The position numbers and the translations under genes are program-made. 8,294 nt of DNA from a virus (lineage: Monodnaviria > Loebvirae > Hofneiviricota > Faserviricetes > Tubulavirales), in IMG/VR virus record IMGVR_UViG_2541047895_000001, positions 1 to 8,294 of that record, one strand, 5' to 3'. How positions within the stretch are numbered: position 1 is the stretch's first letter; every line of letters begins with the position of its first letter. This document shows, piece after piece, positions 296 to 2,593 of the stretch. The notes under the pieces are model-generated. The model searched no databases. It was not told where the DNA came from and saw nothing but the letters and a program-made list of their open reading frames with translations.

Positions 296-478
296 TTATT
301 TTTTTTGGTTTCTTTGGTGGATCATGTCTTGTTTTGCGTCGTTTAAGTAGTTTTTTATCATAAAGTGTACAACTTCCGACCATGTAACTATTTGCCCTGT
401 TTTTTGGCTTATCTCAAGGGCTATTCTAGTAATATCCAGATATGTTGATTCTGTAATTGCTATTGCCTTTCTTTTCAT
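296..478 (-). CDS. Small (60 aa) putative DNA-binding transcriptional regulator, candidate lysogeny repressor
   Basis: Divergent from Rep, as rstR is to rstA in CTXphi; basic N and C termini (MKRK..., ...QRNQKK); GGAGA Shine-Dalgarno about 7 nt upstream of ATG on the minus strand (486-490 in + coordinates); faces an intergenic region with repeated GTTAACA motifs. Fold not recognised with certainty. Confidence 0.5.
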   Translation of the reverse strand: MKRKAIAITESTYLDITRIALEISQKTGQIVTWSEVVHFMIKNYLNDAKQDMIHQRNQKK

Positions 479-592
479 TCGCCCATCTCCATTGTTAACA
501 GTTTAACAAGACAACATTTTCACTTGACCCATAAAAATTATGAGTGTTAACCTGTTAACACTTTAACACCAGTGCGTTTTTTATTCGTTTTT
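479..592. promoter_or_regulatory. Divergent promoter/operator region between regulator and Rep, with clustered GTTAACA/TTTAACA repeats
   Basis: TGTTAACAGTTTAACA at 493-508 and GTGTTAACCTGTTAACACTTTAACACC at 544-570; possible -35 TTGACC (524-529) and -10 TAACCT (548-553, 18-bp spacer) for Rep; the repeats overlap the predicted -10/+1. Confidence 0.4.
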
Positions 593-2593
593 ATGACTGA
601 ATCAGCCATCCTCACAGCGTATAACGCCATCGACGCGGCATCCGTCGCTCTCGGTCGTCCTTGTCTGACACTGCCCGAACGTGAGCATTTTCAGGCTGAG
701 CGCGATGTTGCCACCCGCAACCTTGCCACGCTTTCCCGCCAGTATCGTGATGAGGTCGGAGTGCTCTCTTCACAGCTTGCCCTGCCACGTAACACGCAGG
801 TTGACCGTGTGATTTACGGAATTAACTGCACGGATTTATCTCTCGCTGACAGGGGTAGGGCCGCCGGACTGGTATCACAGTTTGGTTCGTTTTCCTTCAC
901 CGTGGCGCACGCTTTCTGCCGTCTGGTTTATCAGCTCGGTGTGAAAAATGCGCTGATGGCGCTTGAGTCTGCGCACCGTTTCGCTTTCTTTAATCAGGAC
1001 GGAGACCCTTATGAATTCTCGCTTTTCTGCACTGATGAGCAGCTTGCTGAGGTGGCTGATTCGGTTGTTCGTGACTGCCTTGTTTCTTGGGCCATTTATA
1101 GTGATGTACCAGAGCAGCACCTTCTCAATGTGATGGCGTATTTTCAGGCCATATCCGGCTTTGATTTCGCGCCCGTTTATGCAACTTATCATGAGCGTTA
1201 CGGCGATGAGGGGTTGCTTAAGCGTCTGACTGACCTGGCTTTTGTCACCCGTTTTCTGCGGGTTGTCCGTGACCAGCGGGTCAATGAGGTCTGTCGTATG
1301 CTCGGCATACTGAACCGCACCACGCCTTATATTTCCGACTGGCACCGCGACCTTTTTGCTGTCCGCAGTAAACGCGTGAAAAAGTATCTCCGGTCCTCCG
1401 GCGTCTTTGATGCGTTTAATGAGCTGGTCTGTACGCTGGAAGATGCGCATAACGCCTCTGTTTCGAACCCGAAAAACCGGATTGCTGAACTCTGCGTTCG
1501 TGGGAAGGCCGTCTGTGAACTGTCCGAAGATATGGGGTTGTCCGGTTACTTCATCGTGCTCACCACGCCGTCACGTTTTCACCCGACGACCAGTTTTAAG
1601 GTTGCCGGAAAATGGCATTCCCGCCCGAACAAAAAATGGTGGGAAGCAGGTTGCCCGACCATTAAGGATTCGCACGCCTGGCTGAATACCGTCTGGCGGC
1701 GGGTCTGCCGCAGACTGGATAAAGCCGGCATTCAGATACCCGGTCTGCGCACGGTTGAGCCGCATGCTGATGGTACAACGCACTGGAATTTCCTGATTTA
1801 CTGCAATCCCCATGAGAGCGCAACGGTGCTGGCCATTTTCCGTGAAGAGGCCATGCGCGATGAGCCGGATGAAAAGGGGGCGGAAGAGCACCGTATCCGT
1901 ATTGAGGCTATTGACCCTGAAAAGGGCGACGGTTTCCGTTACATCGTGAAGTACATCACCAAAATGGCGGGCGATGCCAGTGCGGACGGTATTGCCTCCC
2001 TGAATGACCGTTATTCTGCCCGTTCATTCTGTGATGCGGTCAGCCGTGCCGCCTGCTGGCAGAAAGCAACGCGTCTTCGCCTTTTCCAGTTCTTTGGCGT
2101 TCCGTCTGTCACGGCTTACCGCCAGATGCGCAGCTTCCGCGCACCGCTTGAGGCGCATCATATCAATATGCAGCAGTTCACCCCGCAGCAGGTCGCTGAA
2201 CTTGAAGCCATCCGCATGGCCTGTGATGCAGGCGATTTCCGGACCTATATCCTGCTGAACGGCGGTTTCTTCTGTTCTGAACGTCTGCTTCGTCCGTTTT
2301 ACGTTCAGCCGCAGGAAGGTGGTAAGCCCCGTATTAACCGTTACGGCGAACCCTGCGCGCCGGTGATTTCCGGTTTCATGTTTGGCCCCGTTCCGGTCAT
2401 AACCCGTTTTATGGGGTGCGTTGTCCGCCGTATGACCCCCGCAGAGAAAATCCGCGCAGATGAAATCAGAAGTGGCAACAGCTATGAATCTGTGTTCATT
2501 TCGTCGGCTTCACGACACCGCACGACGCGCTCCCGCGCGGCGGGCGGGGGCGGCGGAGCCGACCCTTGGACTTGTGACAATAACTGTCCCTGA
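593..2593 (+). CDS. Rolling-circle replication initiation protein (HUH-superfamily Rep, phage CRI/RstA/GPA-like)
   Basis: Motif-1-like FIVLTTP (1550-1570), motif-2-like THWNFLIY (1781-1801), and two-tyrosine active-site motif YIVKYITK (1940-1963) as in phiX174 gpA / P2 gpA-type initiators. First gene after the regulatory region. ATG 593 preferred; in-frame GTG at 572 is an alternative; no strong Shine-Dalgarno for either. Confidence 0.8.

Follow-up and report, generated by a model that had tools for sequence, protein, structure and literature searches.

Inoviruses have modular genomes, in which the genes for replication and integration change hands most often (Roux et al., PMC6813254); VFJ has been published as a mosaic that combines fs2 with phages of the VGJ type (PMC3731265), and for UPphi901 the genes in common with Ypfphi are reported to be II and V alone (PMC7307601). 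The modular exchange of replication genes in inoviruses is already established, and the findings reported here add detail to it and not a new concept. They concern a DNA stretch of 8,294 nucleotides (nt), hereafter called the window (IMG/VR virus record IMGVR_UViG_2541047895_000001), which is one full unit of a filamentous prophage (inovirus), and in particular its replication initiator, Rep. We assign a probability of about 0.85 to the reading that the window is a complete temperate inovirus unit of 8,282 base pairs (bp), found in tandem at the Escherichia coli dif site and carrying an immunity cassette and a replication cassette with its own origin. The main additions are the origin predicted in the Rep tail, the boundaries of the exchanged cassettes, a folded attP, and the occurrence throughout one clade of the variant H-W-N in Rep motif 2. 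A non-exhaustive literature search returned no paper on this E. coli prophage group, on the embedded origin, or on the H-W-N variant.

Comparison with described systems

The A gene of phage P2, together with that of 186 and HP1 and with P12 of PM2, belongs to the same hidden Markov model (HMM) family as the window Rep, presents motif 1 at the same position, and shares the Y-x-x-K-Y-x-x-K signature, with its tyrosines at identical residue numbers (Y450 and Y454). P2 has its origin (ori) inside gene A, whose product carries two tyrosines in the active site (as cited in PMC3986222); also in the window, the predicted origin core is located toward the 3' end of the rep gene. However, P2 A is only about 28% identical to the window Rep, which has an Asn in place of the second HUH histidine, and P2 ori is about 140 codons upstream of the stop, whereas the window origin is placed in the last 10 codons. 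Furthermore, the window Rep serves a filamentous phage with single-stranded DNA (ssDNA), different from the double-stranded DNA myovirus P2 and corticovirus PM2. Among the inoviruses, the Vibrio filamentous phages fs2 and VFJ (Saetivirus), Vaf1, Shewanella phage Dolos, and the pre-CTX RstA-like genes have a GPA-type Rep of about 700 amino acids (aa) that aligns over aa 43-606. In particular, fs2 carries the origin motif in the 3' end of its Rep gene, with 3 mismatches, and its pI is 32% identical to that of the window, but its Rep reaches only 29% identity and reads H-N-H in motif 2, its integration and regulatory regions are different, and its pIV is distant (27.7%).

With the integrative mobile elements exploiting Xer (IMEX) of the CTXphi type, the window shares integration at dif, junctions on the XerC side, tandem arrays, a folded two-site attP, a small divergent regulator, and a swappable immunity region. 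Different from them, it has another family of Rep (a Rep_trans initiator is found in the Xer-integrating element of locus L018, and RstA of CTXphi is of the Rep_trans type as well) and it encodes its own secretin. UPphi901, Ypfphi, and CUS-1, from E. coli and Yersinia, resemble the window in host range and niche, in tandem integration at dif, and in the modular split reported between genes II and V and the rest (PMC7307601, PMC4266046), but they are a different phage group. We rejected the identification of the window with Ypfphi, CUS-1, or a UPphi phage, on a comparison made by description: its pI is 35% identical to that of IKe versus about 70% reported for the covered UPphi genes, and few complete E. 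coli genomes (39 of 5,426) carry its Rep module.

As for the Ff phages (M13, fd, f1) and IKe, the window shares with them the order g5-(g7/g9)-g8-g3-g6-g1-g4, a pIII N1-like domain (41%), and the ATPase domain of pI (32-35%). The same phages have, however, a Phage_CRI/G2P Rep and an intergenic origin, whereas the window origin is predicted in the rep gene, and the window phage is temperate, with an attP and a regulator. No similarity to Ff or IKe could be detected for the window pV, pVIII, and pIII C terminus, and that of pVI is marginal (E = 0.058).

The window is one full prophage unit

The window finds full-length matches in two complete E. coli chromosomes, at 99.6-99.7% identity, and prophage copies occur in tandem in E. 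coli strain 2015C-4136CT1. Bases 8283-8294 repeat bases 1-12, so that the unit length is 8,282 bp. The core genes follow the Ff order, all of them on the plus strand, and every core open reading frame (ORF) is intact in the window; matches to Zot, Secretin, and Phage_Coat_A, along with PHROG matches for coat and assembly proteins, the gene order, and the common strand, place the element among the inoviruses. Since megablast of the whole window against the phage collection found nothing, protein-level searches were needed. The module formed by Rep and the g5-like gene occurs, at 90-100% identity, in about 0.7% of the complete E. coli genomes mentioned above. Our annotation corrects that of RefSeq, where the labels are only "replication endonuclease," "GspD," "Zot," and hypotheticals.

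Rep belongs to the P2 gpA family

The rep gene spans 593-2593 on the plus strand, and Phage_GPA, phrog_91, and BLASTP identify its product as a P2 gpA-family, HUH-type rolling-circle initiator. The length of 673 aa given to it in an earlier interpretation made without database searches (hereafter the sequence-only reading) is obtained from the GTG at 572 (ORF 572-2593), but RefSeq and the lengths of the homologues favor the ATG at 593 as the probable start, with 666 aa, and this numbering is used here. Rep matched Pfam PF05840 (Phage_GPA) with 165 bits (cut-off, 31.4; E = 2.9e-48) and phrog_91 ("nicking at origin of replication") with 434 bits (2.4e-129), and BLASTP returned fs2 Rep (2e-54, 29%), PM2 P12 (5e-46, about 30%), and P2 A (2.5e-35, about 28%). 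No match was obtained with Phage_CRI and G2P_X_C, and BLASTP against the pII proteins of M13 and IKe gave nothing better than E = 5. Within the GPA family, Rep is a divergent member.

These results bear out what the sequence-only reading had claimed about the lack of resemblance to Ff pII and about a two-tyrosine initiator of the P2 type, and all four peptide strings that it quoted are present, namely FIVLTTP (aa 320-326, nt 1550-1570), THWNFLIY (aa 396-403, nt 1778-1801), YIVKYITK (aa 450-457, nt 1940-1963), and the Gly-rich string of the tail (aa 648-659, nt 2534-2569). The term "CRI/GPA-like," however, merged two unrelated families, Phage_CRI being the family of Ff pII (IKe pII matches it at 2.7e-76). 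Nor is the N-terminal region of roughly 320 aa an extension, as had been proposed, since motif 1 starts at aa 320 both in this Rep and in fs2 Rep and at aa 322 in P2 A. Motif 3, Y450-IVK-Y454-ITK, aligns with YIAKYISK of P2, with both tyrosines invariant in 22 homologues.

Units of exchange in the genome

The sequence-only reading had proposed a mosaic in which a replication and lysogeny module foreign to the Ff phages is joined to an Ff-like morphogenesis module. Comparison of the window sequence with its relatives tells us that the genome is a mosaic, with exchange visible in loci L019, L017, and L015, but also that the units exchanged differ from those first proposed, the replication cassette ending at about 3042-3049, after the gene-V-position protein, and not at 2593. 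In L019, of a type found in at least 10 complete E. coli genomes, the segment 596-3042 is in common with the window at 94.9% nucleotide identity (Rep 97%, g5-like protein 94%), no similarity is detectable in pIII, pVI, and pI, and pIV is 39% identical. L029 has the segment 593-3007 at 89.7% (Rep 91%), along with a pI at 41% and a pIV at 50%.

Other relatives delimit further units. L017 matches the window at about 91% over 1-305 and from 593 onward, with only 306-592, containing the regulator and the operator-like repeats, swapped. In L015, inserted between yoaA and yoaB and not at dif, an IS110-family transposase directly upstream of Rep replaces attP and the regulator; the homology starts at 596, runs at 94% to 3663, is lost over the pIII N-terminal domain (3663 to about 4585, replaced in close relatives), and resumes at 85% over 4585-8217. 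Moreover, the AT-rich block of the pIII C terminus and pVI is exchanged independently, as in L026, where 4930-5666 is replaced between flanks at 96-98%. It follows from these comparisons that the units of exchange are attP, the immunity cassette (306-592), Rep with its origin and the g5-like gene (593-3049), the pIII N-terminal domain, the pIII C terminus with pVI, and pI with pIV.

The proposal in its original form, that is, a recent chimera of an Ff-type block (pIII C terminus, pI, and pIV) and a foreign Rep and regulator, with base composition as its footprint, seems to us unlikely, even though it has several points in its favor. Rep is indeed unrelated to Ff pII; the N1-type domain of pIII (aa 110-174) is specifically Ff/IKe-like, with 41% identity to M13 pIII (2e-10); and elsewhere GPA-type Reps do occur with truly Ff-like modules, as in L044 from Xenorhabdus sp. 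BG5, whose Rep is 42% identical to that of the window and whose pI and pIV are 63% and 52% identical to those of M13. Within pIII, however, the resemblance to Ff stands only for the N1-like domain, since nothing significant was obtained for the C terminus against Ff pIII (E >= 3.8). The pI assembly ATPase of the Zot type (5667-6878, plus strand; Pfam Zot 5.4e-09, phrog_1675 4.1e-51) is 34.5% identical to that of IKe, 31.8% to that of fs2, and 31.7% to that of M13, all three alignments being restricted to the N-terminal 220 residues. The pIV secretin (6988-8217, plus strand; Pfam Secretin 8e-25, phrog_1012 7.1e-117) is 27.7% identical to that of fs2 (1e-20) and 25.7% to that of M13, with 25-26% for the Ff secretin domain, and the phage collection yielded metagenomic inoviruses, at 42-43%, as its nearest relatives. 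Since pI and pIV are no closer to Ff than to fs2, and fs2 has the same family of Rep, the label "Ff-like" is unsupported, and the identities of pI and pIV already point away from a placement in the Ff/IKe clade. The breakpoints actually observed, at 593/596 and at about 3042, also disagree with a junction at 2593.

The contrast in base composition on which that proposal leaned is real: the G+C content (GC) is 0.553 over 593-2593 versus 0.329 over 4850-5660, and it extends to the third codon position (GC3), with 0.59 versus 0.21-0.27. Gene by gene, GC and GC3 are 0.55 and 0.59 for Rep, 0.44 and 0.38 for the g5-like gene, 0.49 and 0.37 for g8, 0.40 and 0.25 for the N-terminal part of pIII, 0.34 and 0.27 for its C-terminal part, 0.31 and 0.21 for pVI, 0.48 and 0.45 for pI, and 0.52 and 0.54 for pIV. 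The block that is low in GC and rich in T (44% of plus-strand bases) is limited to the genes for virion proteins, from the g5-like gene to pVI, with the exception of the G+C-rich pIII repeats. Because pI and pIV are near Rep in composition, and because GC falls in the same order, from Rep through pI/pIV to pIII/pVI, in the relatives L010 from E. coli and L012 from Salmonella (Rep 48-58%), composition does not mark the junction between Rep and the morphogenesis genes and cannot be taken as a sign of two origins.

Still less probable, in our opinion, is the opposite explanation, in which no exchange took place and the gpA-type Rep, ancestral in an old lineage including fs2 and the enterobacterial prophages, diverged vertically with the rest of the genome. 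The Rep homologues at 43-58% identity that we examined all occur within full inovirus gene sets, and the divergence is roughly parallel along the genome in the E. coli relative L010 (Rep 58%, g5-like 58%, g8 45%, pVI 41%, pI 49%, pIV 61%) and, with it, in L037 (Rep 58-61%, g5-like 58%, g8 45%, pI 49%, and pIV 61-62% for the two loci); fs2, too, shares both Rep and pI. It follows that the pairing of a gpA-type Rep with an inovirus body is old. An entirely vertical history is nevertheless contradicted by L019 and L029, where Rep at 97% and 91% accompanies undetectable or distant morphogenesis proteins, by the unequal left and right halves of L015, by the metagenomic inovirus D_HF5_61, which carries an Ff-type pII and is the closest among the pIV relatives with a tested Rep, and by the M13-like pI of L044. 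Our preferred reading is an old pairing within which cassettes have been exchanged recently and with sharp limits.

Near-identical Rep cassettes are found downstream of IS110-family transposases (L015 2024-2989 and L019 7435-8403, as well as L010 and L012), annotated as "RNA-guided" in some records and inserted away from dif; the transposase is an alternative integration module on the same phage backbone. The gpA-type Reps with truly Ff-like morphogenesis genes come from L044 and from L046 of Photobacterium profundum, with pI 59-63% identical to that of M13.

A predicted origin in the last codons of rep

The codons of the Gly-rich tail overlie a 23-nt sequence at 2564-2586 on the plus strand, CCTTGGACTTGTGACAATAACTG, which we predict to be the core of the plus-strand origin, with its nick site written as CCTTG/GACTTGTGACAATAACTG (the slash marking the cut) and located in the last 10 codons of Rep. 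The Gly-rich tail noted in the sequence-only reading is thus present but has no special feature as a protein. With at most one mismatch, the same 23-mer occurs inside the Rep 3' end in the E. coli relatives L010 and L011 (Rep 58%), across the stop codon and in another frame (...ALDL-stop) in Salmonella L012 (Rep 48%), in the intergenic region about 190 nt past the stop in Xenorhabdus L013 (Rep 44%), and about 180 nt past the stop in Providencia L014 (Rep 43%). It is recognizable with 3 mismatches inside the Rep 3' end of fs2 (Rep 29%), and with 5 mismatches in the 3' part of gene XII of PM2 (Rep about 30%) and in P2 (Rep about 28%), where it coincides with the GenBank-annotated "nick site at ori," CCTCG/GAGTCC. 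The origin cores of P2 and of the window share CCT(T/C)GGA..T..TG.CAATAACTG.

In a set of 80 loci from 80 species with a gpA-type Rep, and allowing up to 6 mismatches, the motif was found on the Rep strand in 74 loci, at positions from -698 to +198 nt relative to the Rep stop, and a match on the opposite strand in 2; of the remaining six loci, five are short or truncated close to Rep. The conserved core in this set is about 24 nt, cCCTTGGAcTtgTGTCAATAACTGT, between unconserved flanks. Against L010, the origin stretch is the best-conserved DNA (85% versus about 68% elsewhere), and an exact 21-mer is present on 20 IMG/VR contigs, including three of 28-63 kilobases whose Reps are 27-29% identical. 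A contig scan with a single Rep sequence confirmed no relative, whereas an alignment-based scan succeeded. The conservation of this DNA regardless of frame and of coding, together with its correspondence to the P2 nick site, argues that 2564-2586 is the plus-strand origin, and by analogy with P2 the nick would fall between 2568 and 2569. As the origin is contained in the rep gene or directly adjoins it, the two would travel as a single unit, so that the same cassette can be combined with morphogenesis, integration, and immunity modules that are unrelated to one another; the embedded origin would thus account for the free movement of the replication module between unrelated virion modules.

The tail could also be a functional protein motif, for example, one binding a metal or a partner, given that the peptide PWTCDNNCP is kept in Reps 55-96% identical (P0001-P0013) and that strings of the type ...W(T/S)..NNC... 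recur in PM2 P12 and in distant Reps, with a weaker ...SPVNNC... in P2 A. We hold this to be very unlikely, since this DNA is translated in a different frame in P0009 and the Salmonella Reps (...LDL-stop), is noncoding or outside Rep in Xenorhabdus and Providencia, has its conservation confined to the core of about 24 nt, and is the place where the P2 record puts the nick. The predicted origin accounts for the odd Rep tail without invoking a protein function.

In PM2, the motif is at L009 2097-2119 (record about 3507-3529), with the peptide ...APWSTENNC..., and the GenBank record annotates a "cleavage site" at 2253/2254. The annotated nick site of PM2 may be misplaced, as the P2-type motif is instead in the 3' part of gene XII.

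Motif 2 and a proposed replication cycle

Motif 2 of the window Rep is H397-W-N399, with an Asn where the second HUH histidine is expected, so that one of the two histidines is present. The corresponding sequence in P2, PM2, and fs2 is EPHHDGTPH(W/N)H, with H-N-H in fs2, and the more distant members of the gpA family have H-W-H or H-H-H and in no case H-W-N. Within the enterobacterial inovirus clade, H-W-N was found in all 37 readable protein clusters, and in the loci of 6 further species. Its presence throughout the clade, together with the origin motif beside Rep in 9 of 10 clade loci, argues for a working variant. It is possible to hypothesize, although at odds that we put slightly below even, that the enterobacterial Reps are a functional H-U-N variant of the HUH enzymes, that they act on an origin in their own last codons, which would explain the PWTCDNNCP tail, and that the gpA replicon is portable among filamentous phages, P2-like myoviruses, and corticoviruses.

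That the window is instead a decaying remnant with a Rep that has lost its HUH histidine, as H-W-N in place of H-W-H and the split or misannotated pIII of the RefSeq copy could suggest, is barely plausible in view of its intact core ORFs and tandem copies, of the 39 complete E. coli genomes with the module at 90-100% identity, of H-W-N in every readable Rep of the clade, and of the origin beside Rep in nine of the ten clade loci examined.

In the cycle that we propose for the complete unit, Rep would nick CCTTG/GACTTGTGACAATAACTG on the plus strand, in the final codons of its own gene, and join the 5' end through Y450 or Y454, with host enzymes extending the 3'-OH. The second tyrosine would then cleave at the next origin copy, met either when the replicative form has been copied once around or in the adjacent prophage of a tandem array, and the strand would be closed as an ssDNA circle of unit length. 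This circle could be exported via pI and pIV or integrated at dif by XerCD via the attP hairpin at 1-93. The predicted origin (2564-2586), the attP hairpin, and the immunity cassette (306-592) provide testable elements of this scheme.

Some observations weigh against this interpretation. The GPA score of 165 bits is well below the 363-415 bits of fs2, P2, and PM2; with motif 2 devoid of its second histidine, catalytic competence is assumed from the conservation across the clade; and the nick site is extrapolated from P2. In addition, the AlphaFold model of the 141-aa gene-V-position protein is mostly beta-strand, with low confidence (predicted local distance difference test [pLDDT], 52), and is therefore too poor for a fold search; the fold of the regulator could not be assigned from Pfam, PDB-sequence, and Foldseek searches; and consensus scans of 1-700 gave no sigma-70 promoter and no terminator.

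attP and integration at dif

A dif-like attP with two inverted pairs of XerC/XerD-type half-sites was recognized at 1-93 (plus strand) from the sequence ends and from repeat and fold analysis. Its inverted repeats are 1-11/80-90, 19-32/65-78, and 29-42/54-67, and for the ssDNA of the plus strand a forked hairpin is predicted, in which the XerC and XerD arms are duplexed and a bulge of 6 nt protrudes on one side. The folding free energy is -40.2 kcal/mol (z = -10.0), and none of 200 shuffled sequences was equally stable. A scan of the whole window for canonical dif, with up to 3 mismatches, found no match, because the central region of attP is longer than in dif. A folded hairpin with two sites is the architecture of attP(+) of CTXphi, and the fold suggests that the single-stranded genome integrates at E. 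coli dif in the CTXphi style.

The prophage junctions are consistent with an exchange on the XerC side. The attL junction, GGTGCGCATAATG followed by TGACAC, adjoins hipA and was seen in a strain other than 2015C-4136CT1; attR, at the end of the tandem array of 2015C-4136CT1, is AGTGCGCATAATGTATATTATGTTAAAT, which matches the E. coli chromosomal dif. The flanks, at the terminus of the chromosome, are hipA on one side and the fimbrial genes ydeR/ydeS on the other.

Between the attP hairpin and the regulator, the region 98-295 contains only weak ORFs (e.g., a minus-strand one at 98-268 that starts with TTG) and an imperfect direct repeat of 18 nt (152-169 and 203-220), and it is kept at about 91% in L017 and L018. 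In L018, the dif locus of strain E300010, the phage is preceded by a small element of satellite type (2501-5510) that lacks morphogenesis genes but encodes an initiator of the Rep_trans type and bears a separate attP hairpin, 98% identical to that at window 1-93, in an arrangement like that of RS1 or TLC beside CTXphi.

Regulator and operator-like repeats

The small divergent regulator reported upstream of Rep in the sequence-only reading was found again as a 60-aa putative transcriptional regulator at 296-478 on the minus strand, matching phrog_2503 at 5.6e-27 and annotated as a coding sequence (CDS) in a related RefSeq record. The identical protein is encoded on 383 contigs, and homologues at 44-48% identity occur in inoviruses with other types of Rep. 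No match was obtained in Pfam (E <= 10) or NCBIfam (E <= 0.01), and none was significant among PDB sequences or with Foldseek. The AlphaFold model (pLDDT, 83) has an extended segment at residues 1-9 and helices at 10-27 and 33-59; as a guess from the model, it would be compatible with a ribbon-helix-helix fold of the Arc/MetJ/CopG type.

In the divergent region of 115 bp between the regulator and Rep, operator-like repeats (490-570) consist of 16-nt units, TGTTAACAGTTTAACA, at 493-508, 545-560, and 553-568, which carry the palindrome TGTTAACA; in the repeat analysis, they correspond to the repeat family D1 and the inverted repeats I2, I10, and I15. TKTTAACA has 5 matches versus 0.83 expected, a number that none of 200 shuffles reached, and 4 of the 5 are in 490-570. 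A repressor-operator switch is likely to reside in 306-592, with the regulator acting as its putative repressor.

Gene-V-position, coat, and adsorption proteins

Downstream of Rep, the 141-aa gene-V-position protein (2624-3049, plus strand) is a putative ssDNA-binding protein. It is always next to Rep and diverges together with it, with Rep and 141-aa protein identities of 58/58, 48/41, 44/37, and 43/37% in the relatives, and it has a weak match to Pfam Putative_G5P (E = 0.029). Two small hydrophobic ORFs (about 3054-3194 and 3187-3357, plus strand) occupy the g7/g9 position and correspond to RefSeq CDSs in L001, as does the major coat protein (3383-3625, plus strand; phrog_1646, 1.8e-4). The minor coat protein of the pVI type is at 5301-5663 on the plus strand (phrog_1944, 5.4e-07).

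The adsorption protein of the pIII type (3685-5298, plus strand) presents a signal peptide, the N1-like domain, GGSSGGSTS repeats, and a C-terminal anchor, with a match to Phage_Coat_A (2.6e-07) at aa 110-158. About 30 tandem units of the GGSSGGSTS type, at 63% GC, occupy 4250-4830, and their copy number varies among otherwise near-identical prophages. In L001, the RefSeq gene call is interrupted by these repeats, and a spurious minus-strand CDS has been annotated there.

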